From sequence record OQ921331.1: a stretch of 42,514 nt of DNA; one strand, 5' to 3'. The notes beneath the pieces were generated by a model. It worked only from the letters and a program-made list of their open reading frames with translations, did not search any database and was not told the origin of the DNA. Positions 10,229 through 37,845 of the stretch are shown one piece after another; position 1 is the stretch's first letter; the number at the start of each line of letters is the position of its first letter. The DNA is from Escherichia phage vB_EcoP_PAS7. The translations under genes were made by a program, and so were the position numbers.

Positions 10229-10257
10229 TTGACAAGCAGGGATGCTTTCCGTATAGT
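10229..10257. promoter_or_regulatory. sigma70-like promoter P3 (TTGACA-17-TATAGT)
   Basis: -35 at 10229-10234, 17-nt spacer, -10 at 10252-10257. Confidence 0.6.
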
Positions 10258-10589: not shown

Positions 10590-10778
10590 ATGAAAGTAAG
10601 AATCATCAATCACGATGCTTATGGTCCTTTCTTAACTGATACATGTAAGGAACTGTACGCAGTAGGTACAGTGCATGAAGTACAAGATTTCTTCCCTGAC
10701 ACGGGGGAGGTTATCTTAGGGTATGAAGATGAAGGATTTACCTTTGATCCATCAGAGTATGAAGTTGTGGAGGAGTAG
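10590..10778 (+). CDS. hypothetical small acidic protein
   Basis: ORF track, 62 aa; AGGAGG RBS; followed by a terminator. Confidence 0.5.
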   Translation: MKVRIINHDAYGPFLTDTCKELYAVGTVHEVQDFFPDTGEVILGYEDEGFTFDPSEYEVVEE

Positions 10779-10782
10779 GTGT

Positions 10783-10809
10783 AGCCCTGCGTAGGAAGGG
10801 CTTTATTAT
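10783..10809 (+). terminator. rho-independent terminator
   Basis: Stem AGCCCT 10783-10788 / AGGGCT 10797-10802, then TTATTAT. Confidence 0.5.
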
Positions 10810-10866
10810 AGCACGAATGCTGAGATTTGTACAGTAATAAATTAATTATTTACATAAGGGTTAAAT

Positions 10867-11612
10867 ATGAACTATTTAGATATCTGCGAGAAGTACAATG
10901 TAGGAAGCCTGCGCGACGCTAACCTGCGCGACGCTGACCTGTACGGCGCTAACCTGTACGGCGCTGACCTGCGCGACGCTAACCTGTACGGCGCTAACCT
11001 GTGCGGCGCTGACCTGCGCGACGCTAACCTGTACGGCGCTAACCTGTGCGGCGCTGACCTGCGCGGCGCTAACCTGCGCGGCGCTAACCTGCGCGGCGCT
11101 AACCTGTACGGCGCTAACCTGCGCGGCGCTAACCTGCGCCTAACCTGCGCGGCGCTAACCTGTACGGCGCTAACCTGCGCGGCGCTAACCTGCGCGGCGC
11201 TAACCTGTGCGGCGCTAACCTGTGCGGCGCTAACCTGCGCGGCGCTAACCTGCGCGGCGCTAACCTGTACGGCGCTAACCTGCGCGACGCTAACCTGCGC
11301 GACGCTGACCTGTGCGGCGCTGACCTGCGCGACGCTGACCTGTGCGGCGCTAACCTGCGCGGCGCTGACCTGCATGGGACTGACTTGATTGTAATTTATG
11401 GGGAACAGTACTTTATTAGCCTATACAAGGGAACAGTACGCGCAGGTTGTCAGTCGCATACGATAGCGGAGTGGCGAAGTTTTAGTAAGGAAGAAGTAAT
11501 TGCTATGGACGGGCGTAATTCTCTTAAATACTACCCACGTCTTTTAGACATCATTGATTTTTACTGTGGTAAGGGCGAGCGTCCTGATTGGGTAATGAAA
11601 ATAAACAAGTAA
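10867..11612 (+). pseudogene. pentapeptide-repeat protein, frame disrupted at about 11139-11141 by a 4-nt indel in the tandem-repeat region
   Basis: Frame 1 reads A(D/N)LXX pentapeptide repeats ([15 protein letters not shown]...) up to 11139. The repeat unit AACCTGCGCGGCGCT is shortened to AACCTGCGCCT at 11131-11141; the repeat frame continues in another frame to the stop at 11612, with a non-repeat C-terminal domain (ORF track 11385..11612). Confidence 0.55.
10921..11370. repeat. tandem 15-bp repeat array (about 30 units, consensus AACCTGCGCGGCGCT)
   Basis: Direct reading: 15-nt units with variants GAC/AAC, TAC/TGC/CGC and GGC/GAC; one truncated unit near 11131-11141. Confidence 0.9.
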
Positions 11613-11696
11613 ATAAACTATTGACTTCTTCCAGTAAGTATGAAACTTGCTGGATAGAAGTATCACTATAAGATAACACTACAAGGATTAAACAAT

Positions 11697-16745: not shown

Positions 16746-19196
16746 ATGAAACACGAATCATTAGAACAGAAAGTAGAACGTCAGGTACAGCTAGAGAAGG
16801 ATTACCGTACACGTAGCCTGAATAAGTCACGTGAGCTTGTACAGAAAGCTATGCAAGCTGGTAATCTTTCAAGCCTGCCTAAGGTATCTCGTATGATTGC
16901 AGCTGCTTACGACACCGTAGCAGCAGGCATTGACGAGATGAAGGCAGAGAAAACAGCAGGCGTAGGCGGCAAGTACCGCAGCGTTATACGTCTGGTTCCT
17001 ACGGATGTACTGACCGTGATGACTTTAACTAAGTGTTTCGATGCCCTCTTTGTATCTGAAGGCGGCAGCTCTCGCGTGAGTGCTGGTACTCTGCTGGCTA
17101 ATATTGGTCGTCAGGTACAGGCAGAAGTCCTAAGCATTCAGCTTGAGACTGTAGCACCTGCATACATGAACCGAGTGTTCGAGTACTTGAAAGAACGTAA
17201 TACTACCAGCCCTTCCCACATCATGAAGACACTGCGCGCTTCAGCTGAGAATGTGCACTTAGGGCATGAGCCGTGGAGCAACTCTCAATGTGTAGCGGTA
17301 GGTAAGCTCCTGCTTCAACCAGCTTGGGAGACGGGCCTGTTCCAGTGGGATAAGGCTACCGATGCCACCCGCATGTCCTACCTTGCACCTGCACCTGAAT
17401 TAGCCGAGCACTTGCAAGAACTGGTAGAAGATGCAGATACAGTAGATATCAAGCCGCCTATGCTGGTTAAGCCTAACCGCCACGATACACTGTTCTCCGG
17501 CGGTTACCTGCTCCCTTCTACCTGTAAGCGTGGTACTTATCACAACCGCCAGATTACTCGCAGCATGAAGCGCGATGTGTCTGACGCATTCAAGGAAGCG
17601 ACTGAACTTAAGTCTGCTCTGAATAAGTCTCAAGAAGTTCCTTACGTAATTAACAAGCAGATTCTTAACCTGATTAATGAGGCGCGTCGTACTGGAGTAA
17701 CTGCCGGTATGCCCAGCGCTTTCCCTGCTCCTAAACCTGAATGGTATCTGGACGGTGTACCTAAAGAAGAGTACACAGAGCGTCAGATGGATGACTTCCA
17801 AACTTGGAAGATGAACATGCGCAACTGGTACATCAATGAGCGTGCAAGGGTAAGTAAGCTGCGTTCCTTGATTTCACTGGTTCAGATTTGCGAAGAGTTT
17901 AAAGATGAAGAAGAGCTGTACTTCCCAACCTGCGTTGACTGGCGCTACCGTCTGTACTTCAAATCAAGCCTGCATCCTCAAGGTTCTGACATGCAAAAAG
18001 CTCTGCTGTCCTTCGGTCGGGCAAAGCCTCTGGGAGAGCGGGGTCTGTTTTGGCTCAAGGTACACGTCGCTACCTGCTATGGTTATGATAAGGCCTTATT
18101 CGAAAAGCGTGCAGCTTGGACTGATGCTAATATCGAGCAGATTCGACTTGTCGCATCAAGTCCGTTTAATGCAGAGGCTTTTAAAAGTGCCGACAGTCCG
18201 TGGTGTTTTCTGGCTGCCTGCATCGACCTCGTTGCTGCTCTTGACTCTGAAAGCCCAGAGCTTTACGAATCGCGGCTTCCGGTGGCTATGGATGCAACCA
18301 ACTCTGGCAGCCAGCACTTCTCAGCTCTACTGCGTGACCCAGTAGGCGGTAAACTTACTAACCTGTTCTGGGAAGGTAACGAAGAGAAAGCGGATATGTA
18401 CATGGACGTTAAGCAGCGTACTGATGCTAAGGTCATCATGGACTTGGACAATCCTGAGTTCGTAGTACAGGCTCAGTTCTGGCGTGAGAACGAGATTACT
18501 CGTAGCATGACCAAGCGCCCTTGCATGACACACGTATACTCTGCAACTGTTCGCTCGTGCTCTGAGTACATCCTCCAGTCTGCGCAGGAGGAAGGCTACG
18601 AAGGCACTGAGGAGTACAGCCTGTTCAAGCTGGCAGGTTACCTGAGTGGACGTATGAAGGCGGCGGTAGAGGACGCTAACCCAGCGGCTACAGCAGCAAT
18701 GAAGTACCTGCAATCCCTGTGCTATAAAGTTCCGGCAGCCAATCACCTGCAATGGAAGACTCCGCTAGGTGGTCTGGTTATTAATCGTTACACTGAGTCT
18801 GAAGAGACTACAGTCAAGGTTAAGAGCATGAACTTATCGCACCTGCTTATCTATAACCGTAACTACGATGTAAACAACAAGCGTAAGGCTAAGTCAGGTA
18901 TCTCCCCTAACTGGATTCACAGCTTAGATGCCACGCACTTGATGATGACTATTAATGCGTTCGAAGGTGATATCATGCCTATTCACGATTCAGTAGCTAC
19001 ACATGCTTGTGATGTAGATGTAATGCAGAAGGCAGTACGCGAGCAGTTCGTGCGCCTGTACACTGAGCACGATGTACTGCAAGAGATTACTGACGCAGCC
19101 GTAGAATGCGGCGCTGACTTGGAAGGTTTAGAAATGCCTGTTAAAGGTAATCTTAATATCCAATTAGTGAAGGAATCCCCGTTCTTCTTCTGCTGA
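16746..19196 (+). CDS. single-subunit DNA-dependent RNA polymerase (T7 RNAP family)
   Basis: 816 aa; DATNSGSQHFSALLRD matches the T7 RNAP catalytic motif DGSCSGIQHFSAMLRD; NWIHSLDATHLMM matches motif C. Placement before the structural genes is typical of phiKMV-like phages. Confidence 0.9.
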   Translation: MKHESLEQKVERQVQLEKDYRTRSLNKSRELVQKAMQAGNLSSLPKVSRMIAAAYDTVAAGIDEMKAEKTAGVGGKYRSVIRLVPTDVLTVMTLTKCFDALFVSEGGSSRVSAGTLLANIGRQVQAEVLSIQLETVAPAYMNRVFEYLKERNTTSPSHIMKTLRASAENVHLGHEPWSNSQCVAVGKLLLQPAWETGLFQWDKATDATRMSYLAPAPELAEHLQELVEDADTVDIKPPMLVKPNRHDTLFSGGYLLPSTCKRGTYHNRQITRSMKRDVSDAFKEATELKSALNKSQEVPYVINKQILNLINEARRTGVTAGMPSAFPAPKPEWYLDGVPKEEYTERQMDDFQTWKMNMRNWYINERARVSKLRSLISLVQICEEFKDEEELYFPTCVDWRYRLYFKSSLHPQGSDMQKALLSFGRAKPLGERGLFWLKVHVATCYGYDKALFEKRAAWTDANIEQIRLVASSPFNAEAFKSADSPWCFLAACIDLVAALDSESPELYESRLPVAMDATNSGSQHFSALLRDPVGGKLTNLFWEGNEEKADMYMDVKQRTDAKVIMDLDNPEFVVQAQFWRENEITRSMTKRPCMTHVYSATVRSCSEYILQSAQEEGYEGTEEYSLFKLAGYLSGRMKAAVEDANPAATAAMKYLQSLCYKVPAANHLQWKTPLGGLVINRYTESEETTVKVKSMNLSHLLIYNRNYDVNNKRKAKSGISPNWIHSLDATHLMMTINAFEGDIMPIHDSVATHACDVDVMQKAVREQFVRLYTEHDVLQEITDAAVECGADLEGLEMPVKGNLNIQLVKESPFFFC

Positions 19197-19255
19197 ACAT
19201 TAATTAAACAGTCATGCCCTCAGAGGTATGACTATAAGATACAGGGGTAGCAACC

Positions 19256-24310: not shown

Positions 24311-24350
24311 GAGCCCCGTATCCTTAATTGGGTGCGGGGCTTTTGTCGTT
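24311..24350 (+). terminator. rho-independent terminator downstream of the capsid gene (T-phi analogue)
   Basis: Stem GCCCCG 24313-24318 / CGGGGC 24335-24340 followed by TTTTGTCGTTT. Confidence 0.6.
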
Positions 24351-24407: not shown

Positions 24408-24962
24408 ATGCGTCTTATCGATGCAGTGAACGTAACATTAGAAGCTCTGGGTGAATCTAGAGCTGTAGACTTGAACAGTAGCAATCCCTCAGTAGGCTTA
24501 GCTAAAGCAGCTATCGAGCGTACTCGACGTGGGGTGCTCAGTACCGGTCACTGGTTTAACGTGATTGAACGTGAAGTAGTACCAGCTCAGACAGGTCGTA
24601 TCAGTATCCCGTGGAAGCAACTGGCTATCTATGGTATTGACGGTAAGAAGTATTCCGAGCGTGATGGTATTCTCTACGACTTAGTAGAGCAGACTAATAG
24701 ATTCGAACAGCCTGTTAAGCTGCGTGTAGTACTGGACTTTGACTTCGAGGATTTACCAGAGCACGCTGCATTATGGATTGCGTATGAATCCGCAGCTCAG
24801 GTATACTCTAACGACTTAGGTGCAGATGCTACCTATCAGATTCTAACTCAACAGGCGCGTGAGTACGAAGCGCTTACCCTGCGTGAGCATTTACGCAATC
24901 AGCGGTACAGTACTGCGCGTACTCGTAACTCAGGCCGCATTCGTTATGGCTTCCGTATCTAG
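24408..24962 (+). CDS. tail tubular protein A
   Basis: 184 aa; position and size as T7 gp11; AGGAG RBS. Confidence 0.6.
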   Translation: MRLIDAVNVTLEALGESRAVDLNSSNPSVGLAKAAIERTRRGVLSTGHWFNVIEREVVPAQTGRISIPWKQLAIYGIDGKKYSERDGILYDLVEQTNRFEQPVKLRVVLDFDFEDLPEHAALWIAYESAAQVYSNDLGADATYQILTQQAREYEALTLREHLRNQRYSTARTRNSGRIRYGFRI

Positions 24963-24970
24963 AGGTACTC

Positions 24971-27304
24971 ATGGCTACAAGACCTAGCTCTAACGCATTA
25001 GAAGGTACTATCCCTAGCTTACTGCAAGGGGTCTCTCAGCAGATTCCACGTGAGCGTAAGCCCGGTCAGTTAGGTTCTCAAGTGAACATGCTATCTGACC
25101 CCGTTACCGGTATCCGTCGAAGACCTGCTGCTAAGCTGCTTCAGGACGCTACAGGTATTCCAGCGCCATTAACAGGTAAGCTATTTACTGCTTACGTAGA
25201 GCGTGGTACTGACGGCAGACATCTACTGATTGACACTACTAACGGTAACTGGTGGCTTCTGGCTAAGAATACCGGCAGCATAGTTAACCGTGGTAATAGT
25301 CCGTATCTGATTGCTAGTATAGGCGCGGTATCCATTCAGACTGCCAGTGTAGGTGGGTTAACTTACATCCTTAATACCGAGCAGAGGCCTGTTACTAACA
25401 TTAATAATGGCAATAAACAGAACCCCGCTAACACAGGCTTTGCCAGAGTACTGACAGGTGGCTTTAATAAACAGTGGACTCTTAATGTATACGCTAATGG
25501 AACTGTTTACACCAGCAGCTTCTATCAGAGTCAGGATGATATAGCAGGTTCCACTGCTGCTGCTATAGCTGGTAAGTGGCGTGATGGGTTACAATCTCAG
25601 ATGCCAGCAAACTCAGTGTTTGTGCAGGGTAGTTCTATATTCGTTAGAGGTACGAACGTATCTGTAGAGACTGATGCAGGTACTGCATATGCACTTACTT
25701 CTGGACAGTCTCGGGTAAATCAGGAAACTGACCTACCAGCAGTACTACCAGCAACAGCAGACGGTGCACTATGCGCAGTAGGTCAAGCAGGGGCAGATAG
25801 TACTTGGTATCAGTACGATTACTCTAAACGTAGCTGGATTGAGACTGGTGCTTATAATAGCATAAGCAGCGTTACTAACGTACCTTTAGAATTGGCAGTA
25901 GATGATAATATTATCGAACGCCCTTTCGAAGGTAGGCTCTCAGGAGATGACGAAACTAACGCAGACCCTTACTTCATTACCAACGGTTACTTCACAGGTA
26001 TTGCGGCATTTCAAGGGCGGCTAGTACTACTGTCTGGTGCAGGTATTACATTCTCAGCGTCAGGCCTGTATCAGCGCTACTATCGAAGCACAGTAACCTC
26101 ACTGTTGGATACTGACCGTATAGATATTGCGGCAGCATCTGCGCAGGACTCTGTGTTCCGCACAGCCTTACAGTTCAACCGAGATTTAACTATCTTTGGT
26201 GACAGTATGCAGGCAGTAGTACCGGGCGGTGGTGCGTTAACCCCTACAAACGCAAGCGTAACATTAACGTCAGAGTTCTCGAGTGACAGTCGGGTTGTGC
26301 CAATTGTCGCAGGTCAGACTATCCTCTACCCGAACCGTAGGAACGAAGGTTATGCAGGAGTGCTTGAGTTCTTGCCAAGTCCTTACACTGCCAGTCAGTA
26401 CACTACGCAGGATGCTACTGCGCACCTGCCCCGTTATATACCGGGCCGTATCATGAAGATGGTACTTAGCTCCGTAACTAACATAGGATTTATTCAGTAC
26501 AGCGGTGAGCGTAACGCACTGCTTGTGCACGAGTATCTCTGGACGGGTGATGGCAAGGCGCAGGCTGCTTGGCATAAGTGGACGTTCAAACAAGAAGTAC
26601 TGAGCGTGCATAGTCAATCAGAAGTAATGTACTTGTTTACACGTAACCCTAGCTCAGGTGAAGTACAGGTCCAGACTATTGACCCCCGCGAAGGGTTTGT
26701 AGCTGATGGCTTGTACGAAGTTCCATACCTAGATGCGCGTACCTTAATGAGCGTACAAGGCGGTCAGTTCACAGTTCCAGCGCATTTACGCGGCTCTGAT
26801 TACATGCAAGACCTTGCGTTAGCATATCCAGAGACTAGTGGATTAGCAGGTGATAATGTTGGCATTCTATCCTATGACGGAGATACAGGTAAGGTAGTAA
26901 GAGGTGTTCCAGATGGTAACTATTATATAGGCTTCCGTATTCCGAGCAGCTTTACTATTACCCCGCCTATGATAAAGGACGCTAACGATAACTTGGTAGG
27001 TTCTGGGCATGTACGCCTGTTGCGTCTAGATGCAGCTGCGCGTAAGTCCGGTGTATTCTATGTAGAGGTCAAGGACACTGCCAGAGGTGTAGATAATGAT
27101 AATCTATACTCAGGGCTGTTACTGAACTCACGAGAACTTGCGCCTGACCTAGCTCCTAGATTTGAACTAGGTAACGTTATAATCCCTTGCAGGACTAACT
27201 CCGATACTACTGAGGTTACTTTCAGTACTCGAGATACGTTAGAAATGAACATACTGGATATCTCGTATATCCTTAAATACAGTCCACGTCGTAGACGTAT
27301 ATAA
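24971..27304 (+). CDS. tail tubular protein B
   Basis: 777 aa; position and size as T7 gp12. Confidence 0.6.
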   Translation: MATRPSSNALEGTIPSLLQGVSQQIPRERKPGQLGSQVNMLSDPVTGIRRRPAAKLLQDATGIPAPLTGKLFTAYVERGTDGRHLLIDTTNGNWWLLAKNTGSIVNRGNSPYLIASIGAVSIQTASVGGLTYILNTEQRPVTNINNGNKQNPANTGFARVLTGGFNKQWTLNVYANGTVYTSSFYQSQDDIAGSTAAAIAGKWRDGLQSQMPANSVFVQGSSIFVRGTNVSVETDAGTAYALTSGQSRVNQETDLPAVLPATADGALCAVGQAGADSTWYQYDYSKRSWIETGAYNSISSVTNVPLELAVDDNIIERPFEGRLSGDDETNADPYFITNGYFTGIAAFQGRLVLLSGAGITFSASGLYQRYYRSTVTSLLDTDRIDIAAASAQDSVFRTALQFNRDLTIFGDSMQAVVPGGGALTPTNASVTLTSEFSSDSRVVPIVAGQTILYPNRRNEGYAGVLEFLPSPYTASQYTTQDATAHLPRYIPGRIMKMVLSSVTNIGFIQYSGERNALLVHEYLWTGDGKAQAAWHKWTFKQEVLSVHSQSEVMYLFTRNPSSGEVQVQTIDPREGFVADGLYEVPYLDARTLMSVQGGQFTVPAHLRGSDYMQDLALAYPETSGLAGDNVGILSYDGDTGKVVRGVPDGNYYIGFRIPSSFTITPPMIKDANDNLVGSGHVRLLRLDAAARKSGVFYVEVKDTARGVDNDNLYSGLLLNSRELAPDLAPRFELGNVIIPCRTNSDTTEVTFSTRDTLEMNILDISYILKYSPRRRRI

Positions 27305-27318
27305 CAAGGAGGCTGCCT

Positions 27319-27885
27319 ATGTGGCAGTACGTAGCAGCACAAGCCGCCGCTTCGCTGTTCCAGATTGGCGGCCAAATTGAAGCGCAGGTTGAGCAGTCTA
27401 AAGCGGTACAGGCTCAGCTGGCTAAAGGCATAAGCCAATTAAACTTACAGCGCAGTCAGTCAAGACGGCAGACTAGCGCTGCCTTATTCAACGTTCAACA
27501 AGGTAAGCAGCAAGCACTGTCTCAGGTAGGCCTACAGGCCGCAGCCTCGGATACTGTAGGTGCAAGCGTCAGGGACGCAGTTGCTACAGTTAACGTACAA
27601 ACAGACCGTCAGGATACTGCGGTACGTGCTCAGCAGCTGGCACAGGAGCAAGGCTTCTTCCAGCAGGCAGAGGTACTTATTCAGAATGCTAGGGCTAATA
27701 CTCCTCAGCAGTCAGGTCAAGATATTGTATTCAACGCTGCACTGTCTATTGCAGGTAAGGCAGCAGGCTCCGCAGCAGCAGACGGGGTACTTGGGGATAG
27801 TGATATTCTAGGCTCCTTAGGGGAGTTCGGGCAATCTCTTAGTGGTACATACCAATCGTGGAAAAGTTATTTAGGTGGTGAGTAA
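27319..27885 (+). CDS. internal virion protein A
   Basis: 188 aa, Gln/Ala-rich, first of three core proteins after the tail tube genes. Confidence 0.5.
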   Translation: MWQYVAAQAAASLFQIGGQIEAQVEQSKAVQAQLAKGISQLNLQRSQSRRQTSAALFNVQQGKQQALSQVGLQAAASDTVGASVRDAVATVNVQTDRQDTAVRAQQLAQEQGFFQQAEVLIQNARANTPQQSGQDIVFNAALSIAGKAAGSAAADGVLGDSDILGSLGEFGQSLSGTYQSWKSYLGGE

Positions 27886-30575
27886 TGCCGATTAATCCGC
27901 AGCGTCAGGGGCTTAACTTAAGTCCTGTACAATTACAAGCTACACAGCAGAACTTTCAAACAGGTATTGGTGCAGCAGCTGTAGATGAATCAGGTCAGGC
28001 GCGTAGTGCTGCTATCAGTAAGTTCCTTAGTGATGCTGTAGGCGGCTTCCAAGAACAGGCTCAAGTATACGGTGCTAAGGCAGCGGTACAAGGTGCTCTA
28101 GATGCTCAGAATGCTGTTAATACAGCAGCCGAGAAGGATGAGCGTGTAAAACAGCAGAACTTCCTATTACGTGACTCCTACGAGTCTGGGTATGTATCTG
28201 CCGCAGTAAGTCGTGAGCTAACTGATTGGCGTACATCTGCACTGCAACGCGCACAGGAAGCAGCGGCTAATGGCCTATCTGACGATGAGTTCAGATTGCA
28301 GGAGCAGGAGAGTACTGCTAAGTTCTCAGACCAACTAAGCAAGTGGCTTCCTTCACTGGATAAGCAGGCTGCTATAGCTACGCTTGAACAGGTACGTACA
28401 TCCAGTGCAGCGAACTTCACAGCATTTCAAGAGAACCGTGCTAAGGTTGCACGCGCTAAAGCTGATACTACTCTGGACCAGAACCTGACAGCCTCGGGGC
28501 AAGAGTTCTTTACTCGTGTACAGGAAGGTAACGTTGCAGCGGCTGACTTAGCTATCGTCTCTGGTATGGGTGCTGTACTTGGCGCTAATCATCTGGATAA
28601 GGATGACAAGATTGCTAAGGTTAAGGACTACCTTGTTAGCGTAGCTCAGAACACAGATGACCCTTTGGTTATCGACCGCCTTCAGAAGATTGCTACTGAG
28701 CAGCTAGGCATTAACTCCGTAGACGTTAACAAGGCACTGCTGTCTGAGTTTAAACGCGCTGGTAATCAGATGGAAGCATCTGTGCGCTTTAATATCGCTG
28801 ACCAGCTAGAGTCCCTTAAAGGTGCATCTCCTGAGCAGCAGGAAGCTACATTAGCCCGCATTCGTTCAGATGTACAACGTTACGGACAACTGGGCGTATT
28901 AGGTGCAGGTACTCAGCTCGACATCTGGGCTAGTGCTAGTAAGGTACGTGATGAGGCTGCTGATAAGTATGCGTTCCAAGTAGCGCTTGATACTAAGCAA
29001 CCGTCAGCAGTACTAGCAGGCATGTACGGGGGGGATGTAGACAAGGCCCGTAAGGCTATTGAAAATAACTTCCCAGATGACCCTACAGGTAACGCTAACT
29101 TGTTACAGTATGGTAAGACTGCTAAAGATGCATTCATCGTACAGCGTGCGCATGAACGTACTTCTAAGTTAATGGCAGATACCTTAGCCTCTCTGGACAG
29201 TCTAGGTGAGGACGGCACTGTATCAGCAGCTAACAACGCAGCTATTGCGTCTTGGGTGCAGTTCTACCAATCCGGCGGTGACTTAGACCGCGTAAGTCTT
29301 AGCTCTGCTGTCCCTGAAGAGTACCGTGGTATTATCCAACGTGCTGCTGCTCAAGGTCAGTCTAACGCCAGTAATATCATTCTGGATGATGTACGTCGCC
29401 TTGCACGCAATAAGGCTAGCGGTCGTTACGATAACCTCCCAGCTAATCCCCCTGAAGCTGCTATTGATGCAGAGTCTACAGCTAACTGGTTCAGCTTCGG
29501 CGATACTGCTGATGCTCAACGTACAGAAGGCCGTGTAGCATTGCAGGAAGAATACAAAGCGCTTTACCGCTCTAACCCTGAGCTGCTTGTTGGTAAATCC
29601 CCGGAGGATATTAACACGCTTCTTAAGGGGAATATCCAATCTCGTAAGATTGAGGTAGAAGTAGCAGGTAAGCCACGTCACGTATATCTTCCGGCAGGTA
29701 CTAAGATTCAGGACTTCATGGGTTCTTACCGAGGTGACGCTGAGCAGTTCCGTACTGCGTTAAGCCAGCAGATTCAGGTTAGCGTAGATGCCGTAGCAGA
29801 CCCTTCTAAGGTAGACCGTGTAATCGTCCAAGCTGGTACAGCTGGTGCTCAGGCTCAGAATCTTACAGCTACTGTTATTACTACCGATGGTATCATGCAG
29901 AACATTAGCATTGATAACGAGCAGGTACAGCAGCTAGCACAGCAAGGTTATAATGAAGCCTTAGCAGGCGGTATCAAGATTGGCGAACAGGCTATAGGCT
30001 CACGTCCTGCTACCTTCTGGGATGCAGACAACGGTAGGACTATTAGCTTGAACGTTAACGGTAAGAACAGCGTAGGACTTCCTCCTGCTGTGTATTCTGA
30101 TATCATTGCTACTACTGCCCAGTTCGAAGGATTCCGCGCTACTAAAGCTAAGGGTTCTGTGGGCTTCGGTCTGCATGATAACTCTGGACTCCCTGTACCT
30201 GATAAGCTGACTCCTGAGCAAGGTGTAGAGTTATTGAAAGGTGCTATGGAGAAGCAGTACATTCCAGCAGTGCAGAAGCAGCTGAAAGGGATTACTCAAG
30301 ACCCTAGCGCTTTGAAAGTACTGGTTGACTTGAACTATCATGGCGGTAACGGCAGCTCTATGCCTGTAGCAGATGTTCTGCGTAAGCTCAAGGATGCTAA
30401 TAAGTCTCCTGTAGGTTATGCTAATAATAACGCTGATAGCTTTGATACTCAGGCTGTAGTAGGGTTGAACGTACTGAAACAACAGCCAGCTTATAAACAG
30501 GCTCAGGCTAGTCGTAAGAAGTACCTAGAGACTAACTACTGGCAAGCAGTGCAAGCAGTCCGTTTAGGTCAGTAA
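27885..30575 (+). CDS. internal virion protein B with C-terminal lysozyme-like domain
   Basis: 896 aa; C-terminal region (about nt 30100-30520) QFEGFRATKAKGSVGFGLH...LTPEQGVELLKGAM...ALKVLVDLNYHGG parallels the P22/T4 lysozyme pattern EG...TIGVGH...ELLK...ALxSLxFNxG; the canonical Asp is not obvious. Confidence 0.6.
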   Translation: MPINPQRQGLNLSPVQLQATQQNFQTGIGAAAVDESGQARSAAISKFLSDAVGGFQEQAQVYGAKAAVQGALDAQNAVNTAAEKDERVKQQNFLLRDSYESGYVSAAVSRELTDWRTSALQRAQEAAANGLSDDEFRLQEQESTAKFSDQLSKWLPSLDKQAAIATLEQVRTSSAANFTAFQENRAKVARAKADTTLDQNLTASGQEFFTRVQEGNVAAADLAIVSGMGAVLGANHLDKDDKIAKVKDYLVSVAQNTDDPLVIDRLQKIATEQLGINSVDVNKALLSEFKRAGNQMEASVRFNIADQLESLKGASPEQQEATLARIRSDVQRYGQLGVLGAGTQLDIWASASKVRDEAADKYAFQVALDTKQPSAVLAGMYGGDVDKARKAIENNFPDDPTGNANLLQYGKTAKDAFIVQRAHERTSKLMADTLASLDSLGEDGTVSAANNAAIASWVQFYQSGGDLDRVSLSSAVPEEYRGIIQRAAAQGQSNASNIILDDVRRLARNKASGRYDNLPANPPEAAIDAESTANWFSFGDTADAQRTEGRVALQEEYKALYRSNPELLVGKSPEDINTLLKGNIQSRKIEVEVAGKPRHVYLPAGTKIQDFMGSYRGDAEQFRTALSQQIQVSVDAVADPSKVDRVIVQAGTAGAQAQNLTATVITTDGIMQNISIDNEQVQQLAQQGYNEALAGGIKIGEQAIGSRPATFWDADNGRTISLNVNGKNSVGLPPAVYSDIIATTAQFEGFRATKAKGSVGFGLHDNSGLPVPDKLTPEQGVELLKGAMEKQYIPAVQKQLKGITQDPSALKVLVDLNYHGGNGSSMPVADVLRKLKDANKSPVGYANNNADSFDTQAVVGLNVLKQQPAYKQAQASRKKYLETNYWQAVQAVRLGQ

Positions 30576-30595
30576 TGTAAATATTTATAAAGGGT

Positions 30596-30624
30596 TTGAC
30601 GAATCATGAAATCCGTGATATAAT
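30596..30624. promoter_or_regulatory. sigma70-consensus promoter (TTGACG-17-TATAAT) inside an 8-bp inverted repeat
   Basis: -35 at 30596-30601, -10 TATAAT at 30619-30624; flanked by AAGGGTTT (30590-30597) and AAACCCTT (30626-30633); a 7-bp hairpin GGGGTAC/GTACCCC follows at 30642-30663. Confidence 0.4.
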
Positions 30625-30715
30625 AAAACCCTTCCAGCGCCGGGGTACACTATCAAGTACCCCAGCTCTATTCTTTATCTATTCCCTTTATCAAAAAACC
30701 TTTAAGGATTATGAA

Positions 30716-33700
30716 ATGGCTCAGTTCCTGAATCAAGAAGCTAACCCCGCAATAAAGGATTCTGCTAAAGGTGATACCCTAGTAGAAGTACAGCAACCTC
30801 AAGAGACTGTCCGTTGGAATGATGCTACTGACTTAGGTGCATCTGCACTTGAACGTGCATCTTTAACAGCACAAGCTAAGACTCCAGCTGTAACAGCAGG
30901 CGAGTCCTTCATGGCTGGTGTAGGTAACTCTATTGTTGCTGCTTCATTACGTAAAGCATTCTCCCCTGACTTCCCTACTGACACATCCTTTAAACCTATT
31001 GAGATGCTTCAGAAGGATAATCGTACTCGTATCTATACTCCTAATCAGGAAGAGATTGAGTACTTACAAGGTTCAGTATCATTAGAAGACTATAACTACC
31101 GCATTGAGCAGATGCTTGAACAGCGTGAGCGTGATCAGACAGCAGGGGCTAACCTTATCTCTGGTATTGCAGGCTCCGTTATCGGTGATGCTCCTACACT
31201 GCTAGCTCCGTTTGCAGCTGCTGGCGTAGCAGGCCGTGCAGGTCTAGCGGTCCGTTCAGCTATCCGTGCAGCAGACGTAGGTTCAGCTTACTATGCACAG
31301 GACCAGCTGGGACAGTCCGAAGGTATTACCGCATTAGTAGCAGCAGTATCAGGTGTAGACCAGCTGTTCGATATTCGTAAGGCAGTTAACGCAAGACGCG
31401 CTGTTCAACGTACTGTCGCAGGTGCAACGGAAGACGTAGCCGATACTGCAGCTAACAACGCTGTAGATGCAAGTACTGGTACTACTCGTGGCAGTACTCG
31501 TACAGAAATGCAGTTCGATGAAGCTGCTCCTACTAAGCGCACAGCTCCAGACTCGGATGCCTTTACTACTAAGATTGATTCCTTAGAATCTACCCCGCTT
31601 AAGAAACCTATTCGTATCCTGAAAGGTCAGCAGGCTCGTGTAAGTGTACGCGCAAGTGACGTTACTAAGAACCTGTTAGCACGCGATGTACTGGACGAAG
31701 GCCAGAAGGCATTGCTGCGCTCGCTGGACGGTATTATCGATGATGTACCTGTACACCTCGTAGGTGACACTAACATCTCTAGCCGTTATAATCTGGCTAA
31801 CAATGCAGTTACCCTGCGTGCCTCTAAGAAAGGTCCCCGTACTTGGAACACCTACGGAGATGCTATTAATGGTCTGGATTCTAATACTGCTAAAATTGCT
31901 GTGCATGAGCTTATACACGCTGCTACTGTACGCGCTATTCAGTCAGGTACTCCAGAGGCATTGGAAGCTACCGCTAACCTTACTCGTATTCGCGAGCAGC
32001 TTCTTACTAGCCCTAATCTTAATGCGCGTATGCGTTACAGTCTGAGCAGTAACGAAGAGTTGCTTGCAGGTCTTGCAGATGATAAAGGTCTGGTTAATCT
32101 TCTGCGTAATACTGAAGTAGAAGGTGCTAGCGCTATTCGTCGTATTGCCCAAACTATCCTTAAAGCATTAGGTGCTAAGGTAGAAGGTAATGCCCTAAAC
32201 GCTGTGCTTGATTCCTATGACGCACTTCTAGATGTAGCTGCTAAAGAACGTGGTGTTACTCGCTATAAATCTCAGGCGTTCTCTGAGTATGGTGAGTTCG
32301 CCGATACAGCTAATGGCGCAGTTAAGCAGCTGGATACCTTTAAGAAGACGTTCGCCCGTAGCTTCAGCCTGTACGATAACATTGCCGAGGGTTCTAAAGA
32401 ACTAGCAGACTTGTTAGTATCTGACGGTGCAGCAGTAGGTGCTCGTCGCCCTTCAGTAGCTGATTATAAGCGTAACCTTCAGTTAGAACTGGACGGTGCT
32501 GCTTCTGTGGTTGAGAAGGCTATTGTCGACTCACTGCGCGCAGATGGTATTGGTTTACTGGATGCGTTCTTGCAACGTAACAAGTTCAAAGCTGCCCGTC
32601 GTGAGCGTGAGTCTAAACTTGCACAGTACCTTGACCAAGCATACTCAGCGGAGACAGCAGGTCGCGAGATTCCTACCCCTCCGCAGGATATCGCCCCATT
32701 AGTTAAGGCTTACGTAGATTCTGAGTGGGCTACTAAATGGTATGACCATCTCCAGAAGTCTGGACTGGTTGAGGTGGATTCTCAGATTAAGCGCAGTCCT
32801 TACTACTTCCCACGCTCGTACAGCTACGACGCTATTCGTCAGCAGATTAATACTGGTGCTCGTCAGGCTTCTGACTACCGTGACCTGTTCCGTCAAGCCC
32901 TGCGTGATATCTATCCCGATATGACAGCTGAGGTTGCTGGTCGTGTAGCTCGTGAGATGTTCGAAAGCATCTATAACGGGAAGTCTAAACAGACCGGTCC
33001 AGCATGGCGTAGTATTCTGGGGGGTGTAGGCAACGAAGTTATCGTTGATGCAATGCGTGCAGCAGGCGTAGCAGACGACCAGATTCGTAACTTCCTTACT
33101 ACTAACGTAGCACGTGAAGCGACTCAGACGTCTCGGGTTAAGAACCTGCGTACCCGTAACCGCTTTGACTTGCAGAAGGAATATGTAGTTAACGGTCAGG
33201 CTATGCGCATGGCTGACATTCTGGATACCGACGTGGCTAAGCAGATGCAAGGTTATACTAACCGCGTATCAGGCCGTGTAGCATTTGCATACGCAGGTGT
33301 AACTGACCTGAATGCACTGGAAGGTATGATTAACGCAGCTAAGTCTACAGTACGCGATCCAGACCGTTATCAGAAGCATGTAGACGATACTATCGACTTC
33401 ATGGTAGGTGCACCTGTTCAAGGTTCAGAAGTACCGGAGATATTCCGTGCAGCTGGCAACCTTGCTAACGCCACTGTACTTAAGAACTCCGGTTTGTATC
33501 AGTTGGCAGATACTGCGCTAGCTATGAAAGAGTTTGGGATGGCCCGAGTACTTCGCAGCATGAAGAAAGAGAAGTGGTGGAAGGAAGCTACAGCGGTCGC
33601 TAAAGATGCTAGTCAATCCGCCCGTCTTGATTCTATCCTGCGCGGCAGTATTCAGAAGGAACTTCGGTTCCGTTGGTTGAACTCTTATGCTGATGACAAC

Positions 33701-34486
33701 TTAGACCTTACCCGTAGTTCTCGCTGGTTCAACATTACGCAGAACATCGGTCAGGCTGCACGTCACGTAAACGGTATGGGTCTGGTGCATCGTCTTCAGA
33801 CTAACGTTAACGCAGGTATCGTAATGGACGAGCTTAAGCTCATGCTGAACGGCGATGCAGAAGCTACTAAGCGTTTACAGCGTTGGGGTCTTGACCCTGA
33901 ACTTGCTAAGCGTATGCAAGCTGCTGCTAGTCCTGATGTAGATGCTTTACTGCCAGATGACTTACAGCTTCAGCTAGAGATTATTGGTACTCGTCTAATG
34001 GATCATGTTATCCAGCAGATTCGTGTAGGTGAGACTTCTCACTTTGCACAGTTCAGTCCAGTAGGTCGCGTAGTAGTTGGTTACGGTAGCTTTGCTGTAG
34101 CTGGTACTAACAAGATTCTACGTCGTGAGTACCGTGATAACGGCTGGATTGGCTTAGCACACCTTGCTGCGTATCAGTTCCCTTTGATGTACCTTATTAC
34201 TCAAGCACGTTTATCTGCTGATGGTAGGAAGGAATCAGAAGGTAAGATTATTGCAGAGGCTGTTAAAGCTATGAGCATCCTAGGCGGGTTCAGCTTCGTA
34301 ACTGGTATCTTCGACGATCAAACCCCTAAACATAGCCTGACCGCTACTGGTTATGCTATGAACATCTTAGGCCTGATTCAGAAGGTAGCGGCAGGTGAAG
34401 CAGGCCTTAAAGACGTGTCCCGCAGCCTCCCGCTGTTGCAGGAGTTCATGCCGACCCGTGCAATCATTAATAACTTTGGAGATTAA
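30716..34486 (+). CDS. internal virion protein C (largest core/ejection protein)
   Basis: ORF track 30596..34486 starts at the TTG of the -35 box; the in-frame ATG at 30716 has an AAGGATT RBS; about 1256 aa. Confidence 0.6.
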   Translation: MAQFLNQEANPAIKDSAKGDTLVEVQQPQETVRWNDATDLGASALERASLTAQAKTPAVTAGESFMAGVGNSIVAASLRKAFSPDFPTDTSFKPIEMLQKDNRTRIYTPNQEEIEYLQGSVSLEDYNYRIEQMLEQRERDQTAGANLISGIAGSVIGDAPTLLAPFAAAGVAGRAGLAVRSAIRAADVGSAYYAQDQLGQSEGITALVAAVSGVDQLFDIRKAVNARRAVQRTVAGATEDVADTAANNAVDASTGTTRGSTRTEMQFDEAAPTKRTAPDSDAFTTKIDSLESTPLKKPIRILKGQQARVSVRASDVTKNLLARDVLDEGQKALLRSLDGIIDDVPVHLVGDTNISSRYNLANNAVTLRASKKGPRTWNTYGDAINGLDSNTAKIAVHELIHAATVRAIQSGTPEALEATANLTRIREQLLTSPNLNARMRYSLSSNEELLAGLADDKGLVNLLRNTEVEGASAIRRIAQTILKALGAKVEGNALNAVLDSYDALLDVAAKERGVTRYKSQAFSEYGEFADTANGAVKQLDTFKKTFARSFSLYDNIAEGSKELADLLVSDGAAVGARRPSVADYKRNLQLELDGAASVVEKAIVDSLRADGIGLLDAFLQRNKFKAARRERESKLAQYLDQAYSAETAGREIPTPPQDIAPLVKAYVDSEWATKWYDHLQKSGLVEVDSQIKRSPYYFPRSYSYDAIRQQINTGARQASDYRDLFRQALRDIYPDMTAEVAGRVAREMFESIYNGKSKQTGPAWRSILGGVGNEVIVDAMRAAGVADDQIRNFLTTNVAREATQTSRVKNLRTRNRFDLQKEYVVNGQAMRMADILDTDVAKQMQGYTNRVSGRVAFAYAGVTDLNALEGMINAAKSTVRDPDRYQKHVDDTIDFMVGAPVQGSEVPEIFRAAGNLANATVLKNSGLYQLADTALAMKEFGMARVLRSMKKEKWWKEATAVAKDASQSARLDSILRGSIQKELRFRWLNSYADDNLDLTRSSRWFNITQNIGQAARHVNGMGLVHRLQTNVNAGIVMDELKLMLNGDAEATKRLQRWGLDPELAKRMQAAASPDVDALLPDDLQLQLEIIGTRLMDHVIQQIRVGETSHFAQFSPVGRVVVGYGSFAVAGTNKILRREYRDNGWIGLAHLAAYQFPLMYLITQARLSADGRKESEGKIIAEAVKAMSILGGFSFVTGIFDDQTPKHSLTATGYAMNILGLIQKVAAGEAGLKDVSRSLPLLQEFMPTRAIINNFGD

Positions 34487-34488
34487 GA

Positions 34489-35697
34489 ATGGCTTACAGC
34501 TGGCAAGAACAACGCTTGCCAGCGGGAAGTCAGACCGTACCTGTAGAGATTCAGTACCTTGACCGCTCGTACATTCATTTGTACATCAACGAGGTTGAGG
34601 TTACTGACTTTACATGGGGTAGTGATACGCTTATCCGGTTTGACCAAACGCTGGCAGAAGAGTCTACTGTACTACTAGTTCGCCGCACCCCGCGCGAATA
34701 CCTGTACCTTATGTTCTCTGAGGGCGCTGCCTTTATTAAAGAGAACTTGGATACACAGAATCGTCAGTTCCTGCATTTAGCTCAGGAGCTTGTAGAAGGC
34801 CGTTCTGTTGACGGTTTCTTCGGTAACATTGATATGAACGGCTATCGGATTGTTAACCTGCGCGCAGGCGAGCAACCGGGGGATGCTGTTAATAAGGGCC
34901 AGTTGGATGCTGAAGCTTTGAGAATATCTGCGTTAGAGAACACATTCGTCTCTCAGACTAATTCTTATCCGTGGTATACTACTGCCACAGAACCTACAGA
35001 TATACTTACACCTCCGCTAGTCTTTAATAAAGCATCTGTGTATATTAATGGAGTATGTCAGACCCCAGGCTACAGTTATGAAGTAGTAGCTAATACTATT
35101 ATGCTGGCTGACCCTATTCCGGCAGGTACACACGTATTTGCACGTTTAGGTGAGGATGTTACGGACCTAGTACCTGACTATGCTACAGGCAGCCAACTAC
35201 AGGCAGTAGCCCAACGTACTACGCTAGTAGAAGAAGATATGCAGACTGTGCAAGCATCTATGAATAGTTTGCAATCTGACGTTACTTCTTTAGACACCTC
35301 TAAGGCGGCTAAAGGTGATGCAGGGCTTGCTCAGTTAGGAGCTACGGCTGTAGGGTCTGCTGTATTTAAAGCAGCTTCACAGGTAGATGCTAGAGCTGCT
35401 ATCGGCGCTAATAGCTCACTAAGCCAACAGGCCCAGCAGACTTTTAGAGATGCAGCCACTGGTTTTACTATTAAGATGGGAGTACTCCCAGCTTCGCTGA
35501 CTTCCCCTTACACGGTAACATTTGATATTCCGTTTACTGCCTTATTTCAAGTGCAGCTTACAGGCGGCCCTACTACTGGGGAAAGTGCTACAGGTAACGC
35601 GCAGGTTAGTGCACTAGCAGCATCCTCGTTTACCTGTAAAGCAGCAGCAGTAGCAGAGCTACAAGGCTGCTATTGGGTAGCGTATGGTACCAGTTAA
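34489..35697 (+). CDS. tail fiber/adaptor protein with T7 gp17-like N-terminal domain
   Basis: GYRIVNLRAGEQPGDAVNKGQLDAEA parallels T7 gp17 GRRIVNLANAVDDRDAVPFGQLKTM. Confidence 0.65.
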   Translation: MAYSWQEQRLPAGSQTVPVEIQYLDRSYIHLYINEVEVTDFTWGSDTLIRFDQTLAEESTVLLVRRTPREYLYLMFSEGAAFIKENLDTQNRQFLHLAQELVEGRSVDGFFGNIDMNGYRIVNLRAGEQPGDAVNKGQLDAEALRISALENTFVSQTNSYPWYTTATEPTDILTPPLVFNKASVYINGVCQTPGYSYEVVANTIMLADPIPAGTHVFARLGEDVTDLVPDYATGSQLQAVAQRTTLVEEDMQTVQASMNSLQSDVTSLDTSKAAKGDAGLAQLGATAVGSAVFKAASQVDARAAIGANSSLSQQAQQTFRDAATGFTIKMGVLPASLTSPYTVTFDIPFTALFQVQLTGGPTTGESATGNAQVSALAASSFTCKAAAVAELQGCYWVAYGTS

Positions 35698-35706
35698 GGA
35701 GTAATT

Positions 35707-36006
35707 ATGGCTAAGGCGGCTACAAAGAGTCGCCTCGCTGAACTGCATAAGATGTTCACCGAGGCACTCATTTCAGAATTACAGCAGGCTAAGGATGAAG
35801 AGCTTCCTATGCCTGCGGCAGATAAATCAGTTATCGCTAACTTCCTAAAGGCTAATAACATTACAGCCGATGCAGACTCTACAGAGATGCAAGAGCTACG
35901 TGATGAGTTCCAAGATGAGTTGGCAGAGAAACGTAAAGCACGGGCACAGGAACTGTTAGCGAAAGCTGGTGCAGACCCCGAAGACCCATTAGCAGGCATC
36001 TTATAA
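35707..36006 (+). CDS. terminase small subunit
   Basis: 99 aa, acidic helical protein immediately upstream of the large terminase. Confidence 0.5.
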   Translation: MAKAATKSRLAELHKMFTEALISELQQAKDEELPMPAADKSVIANFLKANNITADADSTEMQELRDEFQDELAEKRKARAQELLAKAGADPEDPLAGIL

Positions 36007-36021
36007 TAAAGGAAAGAAGCG

Positions 36022-37845
36022 GTGATTAGTCCTACTACATTAAACCGATTGAAACTAATATCTCAACGCACTACTGTAATGAACGACAATCCCCGCGGCA
36101 TTCCCAAGGACCAGCGCGAGGAAGTTGCGCTAATGATGGCTGTCACTCTAAAGGACTTCCGAGAGTTCGCATACTTAGGTATGAAGTTCCTCGGCTTTGA
36201 CCTTACGGAGATGCAGCGCGATATAGCTGACTTCATGCAGCACGGTCCGCGTAAGCGCATGGTGGCCGCACAGCGTGGCGAGGCTAAGTCTACACTCGCA
36301 GCTCTCTATGCAGTCTGGCGCCTGATTCAGGACCAGAGCACGCGTATTCTTATTGTATCCGGTGGTGAGAAGCAGGCATCTGAAGTAGCTACGCTTGTTA
36401 TCCGTATGATTGAAACGTGGCCTTTACTGTGCTACCTCAAGGCTGATAGTACTCGCGGTGACCGTACCTCTTATGAGGGTTACGATGTTCACTGCGACCT
36501 GAAGCCTTTGGATAAATCTGCCAGCATCGCGTGCGTAGGTATTACCGCACAGCTTCAGGGTAAGCGTGCTGACCTGCTAATCCCAGATGATATTGAGACT
36601 ACTAAGAACGGCTTAACGCAGACTATGCGTGAGCAGTTGCTTAGCATCTCTAAAGACTTTGCAGCAATCTGTACGCACGGTGATACCTTGTATCTTGGCA
36701 CGCCTCAGACTAAGGACAGTATCTACAAGACGCTTACGGGTCGTGGCTTCGAGGTTCGTGTATGGCCCGGTCGTATCCCTAATCAGGAGATGCGCGAGCG
36801 TTACGGAGAAACCCTAGCCCCGTATATTCAAACCCTCATCGACGCAGGGTACAAAGAGACAGGCTTCGGGTTAGATGGTACGTTAGGTGAATGCACCGAT
36901 AAAGGACGCTATAACGAGGAAGCCTTGATTGAGAAGGAACTGGACTTCGGCCCAGAAGGGTTCCAATTACAGTATATGCTCGACACAACCATGTCCGATG
37001 CACTGCGTACCAAGATTAAACTCAGTGACGCTTTGATTTACACTGGCTCGCATGATGCAGCGCCTGACCGACTGAACTACATGGCTGATAAGCGCTATCT
37101 CTACGGAGAGGAACATGAGGGTATTCGAGGTCAGCAGTTGTATGTGCCGAGTCACGTAGGTGAGCACATGCTCAACTATAAGCACAAGCTGCTGGTACTT
37201 GACCCTGCTGGTAACGGTGGTGATGAAGTATCCTTTGCAGCTGGTGGTGCAGTCAGCTCTTACATCCATCTCTTTAGTGTAGGTGGTTTGCAAGGCGGGC
37301 TTAGCACAGAGAACGTAGATACCTTAATTGACCTAGCGGTCGAGATGGGTATTACTGATATCTTCGTCGAGCGTAACATGGGTCACGGCACGGTAGAATC
37401 TTTGATTATAAACCGTCTACGTGAACGTAGTATGCCCGGCATTGGTGTCAGGGGCGGTTATAACACGTCTCAGAAAGAGAAACGTATCATTGATACTATC
37501 TCCCCTGTTACGCGTCGTCACCGCTTTGTAGTGCACGCTAGGGCGCTGGAAGACGATATCAAGTACTGTATGCAGTACAGTCGTGATAAGCGCTGGCTTT
37601 ACAGTGCGTTCCAGCAGTTATCCGGTATTACTTATGACCGTGGTAGCCTGGCGAAGGATGACCGGGCAGACGCTATTAGTATGCTCGTAGCTGAACTGAA
37701 CTCGCACCTCGTAGAGGATGAGAAGCAGGCAGCAGAGAAGGACCAGCTTAAGAAGGCGTTAGACTTTATGGATAACCCTATGGGCTGGAAGAAGTCAATG
37801 GTACAGAAGCGCAAGCGCGGTGCAAGCGCACGTATCGGTTATTAA
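36022..37845 (+). CDS. terminase large subunit
   Basis: 607 aa; position and size as T7 gp19; starts at GTG 36022, alternative ATG at 36079. Confidence 0.65.
   Translation: MISPTTLNRLKLISQRTTVMNDNPRGIPKDQREEVALMMAVTLKDFREFAYLGMKFLGFDLTEMQRDIADFMQHGPRKRMVAAQRGEAKSTLAALYAVWRLIQDQSTRILIVSGGEKQASEVATLVIRMIETWPLLCYLKADSTRGDRTSYEGYDVHCDLKPLDKSASIACVGITAQLQGKRADLLIPDDIETTKNGLTQTMREQLLSISKDFAAICTHGDTLYLGTPQTKDSIYKTLTGRGFEVRVWPGRIPNQEMRERYGETLAPYIQTLIDAGYKETGFGLDGTLGECTDKGRYNEEALIEKELDFGPEGFQLQYMLDTTMSDALRTKIKLSDALIYTGSHDAAPDRLNYMADKRYLYGEEHEGIRGQQLYVPSHVGEHMLNYKHKLLVLDPAGNGGDEVSFAAGGAVSSYIHLFSVGGLQGGLSTENVDTLIDLAVEMGITDIFVERNMGHGTVESLIINRLRERSMPGIGVRGGYNTSQKEKRIIDTISPVTRRHRFVVHARALEDDIKYCMQYSRDKRWLYSAFQQLSGITYDRGSLAKDDRADAISMLVAELNSHLVEDEKQAAEKDQLKKALDFMDNPMGWKKSMVQKRKRGASARIGY

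Follow-up and report, generated by a model that had tools for sequence, protein, structure and literature searches.

Internal promoters and promoter cassettes described in related phages

In the usual description of the T7 supergroup, the phage-encoded polymerase takes over late transcription entirely. Within the late genes of T7, re-initiation takes place at phi13 and phi17, and the intergenic RNase III sites of this phage are irregular hairpins with internal loops, often located beside promoters. T7 is also said to carry minor promoters for Escherichia coli RNA polymerase (RNAP), reportedly described by Dunn and Studier in 1983, which include promoter E in the late region and are weak and without an assigned function. 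Here, a promoter-like cassette of ~70 bp was analyzed in Escherichia phage vB_EcoP_PAS7 (OQ921331.1), a phiKMV-like podophage of the subfamily Slopekvirinae that encodes its own single-subunit RNAP; the whole stretch of 42,514 nt is referred to as the window. The cassette is located in the gap between the genes for internal virion proteins B and C (genes B and C; B-C gap), and its features suggest a functional sigma70 promoter feeding gene C and beyond, a reading to which we assign a probability of roughly 0.6.

In KP34, a strong promoter, T(A/G)ATGTTACAGGAGTA, recurs behind the RNAP gene, close to the left end, and at 33721-33736 (site S1), and the KP34 RNAP recognizes two unrelated promoter classes (PMC6834552). 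In LUZ19, the phage-specific promoter P009 lies within the structural region (PMC10914365). Both S1 and P009 have experimental support (PMC6834552, PMC10914365), and in our comparison, S1 was placed 743 nt into gene C. Like these two sites, the cassette would be an internal promoter near or in the gene C homologue, past the capsid terminator, that feeds distal late genes. In contrast to them (16-20 bp, used by a phage single-subunit RNAP), it is bipartite in the sigma70 manner, occupies the B-C gap instead of gene C, and occurs in one small clade only.

The promoter-early stem-loops (PeSLs) of the T4-type phages RB49 and phi1 consist of an AT tract, a sigma70 consensus, and a stem-loop, which is sometimes placed between the -35 and -10 hexamers or just past the -10 (PMC2839356; PMC4122927). 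The cassette combines the same parts, namely an AT-rich tract, a sigma70 consensus, and an adjacent or embedded stem-loop; like PeSLs, it is repeated within the genome and sits where relatives show insertions and deletions. PeSLs number ~50 copies and occupy hyperplastic regions beside orphan genes, whereas the cassette has 2 copies (at 30.6 kb on the plus strand and at 10.8 kb on the minus strand) in core replication and structural modules. The PeSL-bearing phages are T4-type myoviruses, unlike the window, which is from a podovirus with its own RNAP. The recombination that characterizes PeSLs is only hinted at here by discordant hairpin alleles and by insertions in two relatives (L259 and L312), and the flank relationships are equal on both sides. 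The cassette would work like a PeSL but should not be filed as one.

Compared with T7, the cassette resembles the reported minor promoters in being host-type and outside the early region of a phage with its own RNAP; it differs from them in being near-consensus, in having an extended -10, and in lying in the joint best-conserved segment of its genome. It also resembles T7 RNase III sites such as phi13/R13, where an intergenic promoter is combined with an irregular internal-loop hairpin. Those sites span about two helical turns, whereas the stems predicted here are shorter (8 + 6 bp, a predicted fold only), and the hairpin overlaps the promoter instead of following it.

Predicted sigma70 promoter elements in the B-C gap

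The B-C gap contained the following features (coordinates of the window):

30574..30589, plus strand: AT-rich UP-element-like tract AATGTAAATATTTATA, at approximately -57 to -42 from the predicted start
30590..30633, plus strand: nested inverted repeat with outer arms AAGGGTTT/AAACCCTT, inner arms ATCATG/CGTGAT, an internal loop of 5 x 6 nt, and the apical loop AAATC
30596..30601, plus strand: -35 hexamer TTGACG (5/6), unchanged in all 6 orthologous copies
30616..30624, plus strand: extended -10 TGaTATAAT (6/6 plus TG) after a 17-bp spacer; TGnTATAAT is also present in every copy of the paralogous cassette
30629..30633, plus strand: predicted transcription start zone CCCTT, 5-9 nt past the -10, placed by the standard spacing from -10 to +1
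30636..30669, plus strand: extended hairpin, with the core GGGGTAC/GTACCCC and 4 further pairs, in the same place as the hairpin of all related Slopekvirinae
30666..30705, plus strand: G-free, pyrimidine-rich tract of variable length, which separates the hairpin from the ribosome-binding site, terminates with conserved CTTTATCAAAA..CTTTAAGG, and shows indels among relatives
30704..30718, plus strand: ribosome-binding site AAGGA (30704-08) and gene C ATG (30716-18), read from the sequence

A first-pass annotation of this DNA had described a TTGACG-17-TATAAT promoter bracketed by an 8-bp inverted repeat and followed by a hairpin with a 7-bp stem, all within a 140-nt gap. Each of these elements was recovered. 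The gap length was exact (stop codon 30573-30575, ATG 30716), small corrections of coordinates were needed, the -10 hexamer TATAAT occupied 30619-30624, the outer repeat arms were located at 30590-30597 and 30626-30633, and the hairpin (GGGGTAC 30642-30648/GTACCCC 30657-30663) had a loop of 8 nt. The TG of the extended -10 (30616-30617), which is kept in all orthologs and in the paralog, had gone unmentioned, as had the AT-rich tract and an inner repeat within the spacer (ATCATG 30603-30608/CGTGAT 30614-30619, with CATGAT in relatives). The promoter is correctly oriented, ~85 nt 5' of a good ribosome-binding site and the ATG of gene C.

Chance expectations were derived from 200 dinucleotide shuffles of the whole window, with both strands scored. 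One site with at least 11/12 hexamer matches plus the TG was observed against 0.055 expected per genome; regardless of the TG, there were three such sites against a mean of 0.57. Two other candidates were rejected. The 11/12 site GTGACA-17-TATAAT at 31764-31792 in gene C lies in a conserved coding stretch, reads TATAAC at the -10 in the relative P64441, and is probably due to chance. A minus-strand promoter-like site at 30736..30708 (9/12) does not retain its -10 in the relative ECO104.

Other strong sigma70-like sites were found at 811, 2952, 10229, and 10345, with the same layout of AT tract, -35, and -10 as the 30.6-kb cassette; the early promoters of the window are likewise preceded by AT-rich tracts. 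This shared layout is consistent with reliance on the host polymerase for the first 19 kb, which is expected in this phage because its RNAP gene is located at 16.7-19.2 kb.

The cassette is nearly identical among diverged relatives

The nearest records were Escherichia phage vB_EcoP_P64441 (P64441) and wastewater assemblies (ECO104 4-5-2, here ECO104, and near-identical records), with ~73-82% DNA identity to the window. The listed host of P64441 and ECO104 is E. coli, a common trait of the named isolates of this clade; among the related wastewater records, several bear the mark UNVERIFIED_ORG and give hosts other than E. coli. In a genome-wide comparison with P64441 and ECO104, the block 30575-30644 was the joint top 70-nt segment at 97.1% identity, a value reached by only 0.026% of all such segments; identity in its flanks was 50-75%. 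Six orthologous copies (the window, P64441, ECO104, two IMG/VR contigs, and one metagenome contig) were 97-100% identical over 73 nt, and the window differed from the others at two bases only (30588 and 30615). The adjoining 300 nt of gene B were 50-67% identical between lineages, and the first 300 residues of protein C shared 54-58% identity. Conservation in relatives had been proposed as a check on the first-pass annotation, and the near-identical block keeps both the promoter and the bracketing repeat.

Metagenome and genome contigs were scanned with the short pattern TATAATAAANCCCTTCC, which gave 240 loci, nearly all of them chance matches; a BLAST re-screen added one true relative (L101). 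The cassette had no match among 5,426 complete E. coli genomes, so a host origin was not supported by this collection. No GC-skew inflection was observed around 30.6 or 10.8 kb, as would be looked for at a replication origin.

A paralogous cassette shares the promoter elements but not the repeat

A second copy was identified by sequence comparison and is referred to as type B:

10780..10833, minus strand: paralogous cassette, TGTACA-17-TGcTATAAT followed by AAAGCCCTTCC and the hairpin AGCCCT/AGGGCT

A further occurrence of the string TATAATAAA(A/G)CCCTTCC was located at 10810..10794 of the minus strand. Both cassettes have in common the AATGTAAATA tract (at an equal distance upstream in each), TTGAC, TGnTATAAT, and ~30 nt downstream (CCCTTCC-N-CGC-N-GGG-N-TACAC). 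In two relatives (L009 and L010), the type-B cassette reads TTGACA-17-TGcTATAAT, a perfect 12/12 match plus the extended -10. The type-B -35 has decayed in the window and in L004, and the extended -10 has been retained there. The spacer and the region 5' of the -35 are unlike between the two cassette types and are drifting among the type-B orthologs, and only the B-C copy has the bracketing repeat. Because the paralogs share the sigma70 determinants and the transcript start but not the repeat, the promoter appears to be the shared, selected part.

Read on the plus strand, the type-B hairpin and TTTATTAT look like a terminator after a 62-aa gene (10590-10778). With a terminator on the plus strand and a promoter on the minus strand, the type-B element would therefore be a back-to-back terminator and promoter. 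Every gene of the genome is on the plus strand, but this cassette faces left, and its RNA would be antisense to the 62-aa gene and would run head-on into the two strong plus-strand promoters at 10229 and 10345.

RNA structure of the gap

As RNA, the outer and inner repeats are predicted to form a two-tier hairpin, in which stems of 8 and 6 bp are separated by an internal loop of 5 x 6 nt. The fold of the bracketing repeat had an energy of -14.4 kcal/mol (z = -3.8), which beat all of its own shuffles, and P64441 folded alike. This fold is only moderately unusual, with 3.9% of GC-matched 56-nt segments of the genome folding as well. The sole substitution in a stem (G/A at 30615, in the inner stem) kept the pairing, as G-U or A-U. 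Covariation in the repeat could not be read because the whole block is invariant. The first-pass annotation had suggested that the repeat could occlude the promoter in a read-through RNA, bind a protein, or serve as a processing site; with a repeat missing from the paralog, a moderately unusual fold, and no readable covariation, each of these is no more than a possible role.

The hairpin downstream of the promoter was more pronounced (-16.8 kcal/mol, z = -4.5, in the top 0.33% among all 35-nt segments). The window and ECO104 carry the allele GGGGTAC, and P64441, L008, L013, and L101 carry GGGATAC/GTATCCC, which is a compensatory change from G-C to A-T. This hairpin does not look like a Rho-independent terminator, since no U run directly follows it (its tail is AGCUCUAUUCUUUAUC) and it was not listed in the terminator scan. 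The gap as a whole (141 nt folded) outfolded all 200 shuffles (z = -3.5), and the AAGGA ribosome-binding site (30704-08) was largely unpaired in the predicted fold. Rfam 15 was searched with the whole window at the gathering score and with the gap at E values up to 10; the window gave no match, and the best local match had E = 3.5, far below the threshold. Small ORFs in the block (MKSVI on the plus strand and a 12-aa ORF on the minus strand) were considered and rejected, because both of the observed substitutions are non-synonymous in them and coding is therefore not supported.

These structures raise the question of whether the block acts chiefly at the RNA level in late read-through transcripts, with the nested repeat and the hairpin together forming a processing or stability site, for instance one comparable to the RNase III sites of T7, that would split the B and C messages, with the likeness to a promoter being secondary or a second use. 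The strong folding of the gap and of the promoter-bracketing sequence, the preserved pairing at 30615, and the invariant spacer, which calls for an explanation beyond the promoter, are consistent with this explanation, as is the downstream hairpin, whose position is kept throughout the subfamily while its sequence differs and shows a compensatory change. The T7 sites themselves, being irregular hairpins with internal loops beside promoters, were also counted in its favor. However, the bracketing fold is equalled by 3.9% of GC-matched segments, 14 bp is short for RNase III, the invariant block shows no covariation and has no Rfam family, and the paralog retains the hexamers, the TG, and the AT tract but not the repeat. 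We therefore consider a mainly RNA-level function unlikely.

A combination of both functions can also be pictured, in which the 70-bp block would be a strong host promoter on DNA and, on read-through RNA of the phage polymerase, a processing hairpin cut on the 3' side of the internal loop. This proposal is speculative and we hold it to be quite improbable. If it were true, both routes would give gene C mRNA a nearly identical 5' end and the same hairpin-capped leader. The clade would then keep the host RNAP active late and depend on it, possibly as a help in pulling in or expressing the last 12 kb, and the type of polymerase would have been swapped in a role served by phage-specific promoters in KP34 and LUZ19.

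The promoter cassette may be a later addition to an old hairpin

To extend the comparison, 63 loci were collected whose encoded proteins are related to the N-terminal part of protein C, and the B-C gap was extracted from each. The MAQFLNQE start of protein C was kept in these 63 loci, and in all of them (63/63) the gap contained a hairpin, then CTTATCA.., and then a ribosome-binding site. KP34-type loci (55) had a gap of 46-51 nt with a GC hairpin (e.g., GAGGCCC-TTCG-GGGCCTC), followed by CCCTTATCAAAATTCTTTTAGGAG and the ATG. The phiKDA1-type loci had a gap of 100 nt with a weak TTGGCT-17-TTTAAT, then GGGGCC-TC-GGCCCC, and then TGCTCTTATCA. Only in the clade of the window did the gap also hold the 65-nt consensus cassette, which lies after the stop codon and before the hairpin. 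Since the hairpin is conserved in position with clade-specific sequences, it is likely an old element, and comparison of the gaps suggests that the promoter cassette is a later addition 5' of it. MAFFT left the KP34-type and phiKDA1-type hairpins out of register, so the case for the hairpin rests on inspection and not on a formal covariation count.

The weak TTGGCT-17-TTTAAT is conserved in three phiKDA1-type contigs (L256, L257, and L312), where it lies ~50 nt 5' of the hairpin, at the position of the cassette in the window, and has a 5-bp repeat (ACTAG/CTAGT) in its spacer. One of them, L312 (IMGVR_UViG_3300045988_022161), has an ORF resembling an HNH endonuclease inserted in the B-C gap. 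In the clade of the window, L259 (IMGVR_UViG_3300010266_000002, 1079-1173) carries a unique self-folding 69-nt insertion after the hairpin, which had no similarity to a phage promoter. The B-C gap appears to be an insertion hot spot.

The insertions, together with the hairpin alleles, bear on another explanation, according to which the block is a recombination linker or a protein-binding site (an operator at ATCATG-N5-CATGAT), that is, a PeSL-like mobile cassette homogenized by exchange between co-circulating phages and not by selection for promoter strength. The alleles cut through the flank phylogeny instead of following it, the 69-nt insertion and the HNH endonuclease gene both entered this gap, each genome holds two paralogous copies, and the dyad symmetry of the spacer is operator-like in its geometry. 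PeSLs, which also consist of an AT tract, a sigma70 consensus, and a stem-loop, mediate recombination (PMC2839356). On the other hand, the flank relationships were equal on both sides and no swap of left and right modules was seen at the cassette. The copies number two, not dozens, and are in core modules rather than beside orphan genes, and no candidate binding protein was identified. A linker or operator is also compatible with a functional promoter rather than an alternative to it. This explanation likewise seems unlikely.

The cassette does not resemble phage-type promoters

The polymerase most likely to use the cassette was examined in the context of the following features:

16746-19196, plus strand: single-subunit RNAP gene, which closes the replication block, with the structural genes directly after it
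19224..19241, plus strand: candidate phage-RNAP promoter AGGTATGACTATAAGATA, just 3' of the RNAP gene, with a second copy at 11658-11675
24311-24342, plus strand: strong terminator-like hairpin of 13 pairs (8 G-C) followed by the T run TTTTGTCGTTT, after the capsid gene and a small downstream ORF
27885..30575, plus strand: internal virion protein B gene (896 aa, from the ORF list), the upstream neighbor, with its TAA stop at 30573-30575
30716..34486, plus strand: internal virion protein C gene (lytic transglycosylase/gp16-like), the first gene 3' of the promoter

In P64441, Minorna, phiKDA1, and K2044-K1-1, the homologues of gene B carry the annotation "internal virion protein B"; relatives of gene C are annotated as internal virion protein C or lytic transglycosylase. 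The B-C gap is the sole sizeable gap within the 13-kb block 24408-37845. The position of the hairpin at 24311-24342 matches that of the conserved terminator of the KP34 group.

The candidate phage promoter, AG(G/A)TAT(G/C)ACTATAAGATA, had only two copies in the window against 0.07 expected, and it was not conserved in P64441 or ECO104. No copy was found 3' of the capsid terminator (24311-24342), and thus none between this terminator and the cassette. In 55 of the 63 loci (L255-L317), a motif of the S1 type, with no more than 2 mismatches to TAATGTTACAGGAGTA, was present 743-1310 nt into gene C, and none of these 55 carries the sigma70 cassette; the motif was found neither in the cassette-bearing loci nor in the window. 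The first-pass annotation had regarded a host promoter in this late region as unexpected. In this subfamily, it is normal for a promoter to lie near where gene C begins, as S1, P009, and these 55 loci indicate, and what is unusual is that the promoter is of the host type rather than the phage type.

The cassette had no similarity to AGGTATGACTATAAGATA or to KP34 S1, and it is identical in three relatives whose post-RNAP regions differ; for these reasons, it was not read as a promoter of the phage polymerase. The presence of phage-type promoters in the structural regions of KP34 and LUZ19, together with the ability of the KP34 RNAP to read two unrelated classes (PMC6834552), is the main ground for supposing that the block belongs to the single-subunit RNAP of the phage and is merely sigma70-like. 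This is nevertheless very unlikely, given that the block is unlike the post-RNAP sequence, the second copy of that sequence, and S1, that relatives with differing post-RNAP regions carry an identical cassette, and that the bipartite TTGACG-17-TGnTATAAT with its AT tract is a sigma70 signature outside of which alone the paralog drifts. Finally, a chance resemblance without function, for which the apparently fortuitous 11/12 site at 31764 in gene C might be cited, is extremely improbable in view of the 0.055 sites expected, the joint most conserved 70 nt, and the existence of a paralog.

The second copy of the candidate phage promoter is part of a composite arrangement at 11621-11675, where TTGACT is followed by an 8-bp hairpin (CCAGTAAG 11631-38/CTTGCTGG 11646-53) and then by the promoter copy AGTATCACTATAAGATA. 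The arms of this hairpin are different yet complementary in P64441 and ECO104.

Proposed role of the promoter and points against it

According to the promoter reading, the ~70-bp cassette with its AT-rich UP-like tract, TTGACG, 17-bp spacer, and TGaTATAAT would be bound by the host sigma70 holoenzyme, which would initiate at ~30629-33 once this region has entered the cell. The mRNA would have a leader of ~85 nt, beginning ~5 nt ahead of the extended hairpin, and would continue through gene C and then through ~12 kb of tail-fibre, terminase, and lysis genes. The terminator scan revealed no strong terminator-like site for several kb past the promoter. The cassette could thereby act as an internal re-initiation point that tops up the distal late genes past the capsid terminator. 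Our confidence in this re-initiation role is lower than in the promoter itself, and it is low for any statement on the role of the inverted repeat.

Several points weigh against this reading. The six orthologous copies collapse to three independent lineages, and recombinational spread could inflate the apparent conservation; the distribution of the alleles GGGGTAC and GGGATAC of the hairpin indeed does not agree with the phylogeny of the flanks. The spacer and the non-hexamer bases are perfectly conserved, which exceeds the need of a promoter, and another constraint must therefore act. This constraint might come from a role of the nested repeat in processing or stabilizing read-through RNA, from an operator at ATCATG-N5-CATGAT, or from recombinational homogenization. 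That phage promoters are absent past the capsid terminator was judged from a candidate motif of which only two copies exist. No purine is present at the expected +1 (30629-30633, CCCTT), and the closest A, at 30628, follows the -10 by only 4 nt. Pyrimidine starts do occur, and the missing purine weakens the case for a sigma70 promoter without excluding it; we regard it as a minor point against promoter function. The host promoter called in the first-pass annotation is supported by its sigma70 features, conservation, orientation toward gene C, and paralog.

The firing, start site, and timing of the promoter are all predicted from sequence. If the host RNAP were shut off late, as in T7, no transcription would start from the cassette at the very time that gene C is required. 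A search by tblastn for an inhibitor of host RNAP resembling T7 gp2 gave no match, which is weak evidence.

The comparisons of sequence suggest that some phiKMV-like coliphages may keep the host RNAP on their tail, terminase, and lysis genes. This bears on the timing of late expression and on whether such phages shut off host transcription. For engineering, the cassette would be a compact, portable E. coli promoter, which is probably very strong. The idea of a cassette composed of a promoter plus a stem-loop would also be extended beyond the T4-type phages.

Other elements of the genome

A sequence of 115 nt was present in three copies (1077-1191, 2990-3104, and 10385-10499) and had no Rfam match. 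The copies at 2990 and 10385 start ~10 nt past an early sigma70-like -10 and end near an ATG. The three copies have a common predicted structure, in which 9/22 pairs show two-sided compensatory changes. In this structural model, the repeat has the appearance of a folded leader at the 5' end of early transcripts.

A tandem array of a 15-nt unit with at least 26 copies was found at 10818-11463, inside the ORF 10867-11388. The homologue of this ORF in P64441, one of two such genes there, carries the annotation of a pentapeptide-repeat protein.

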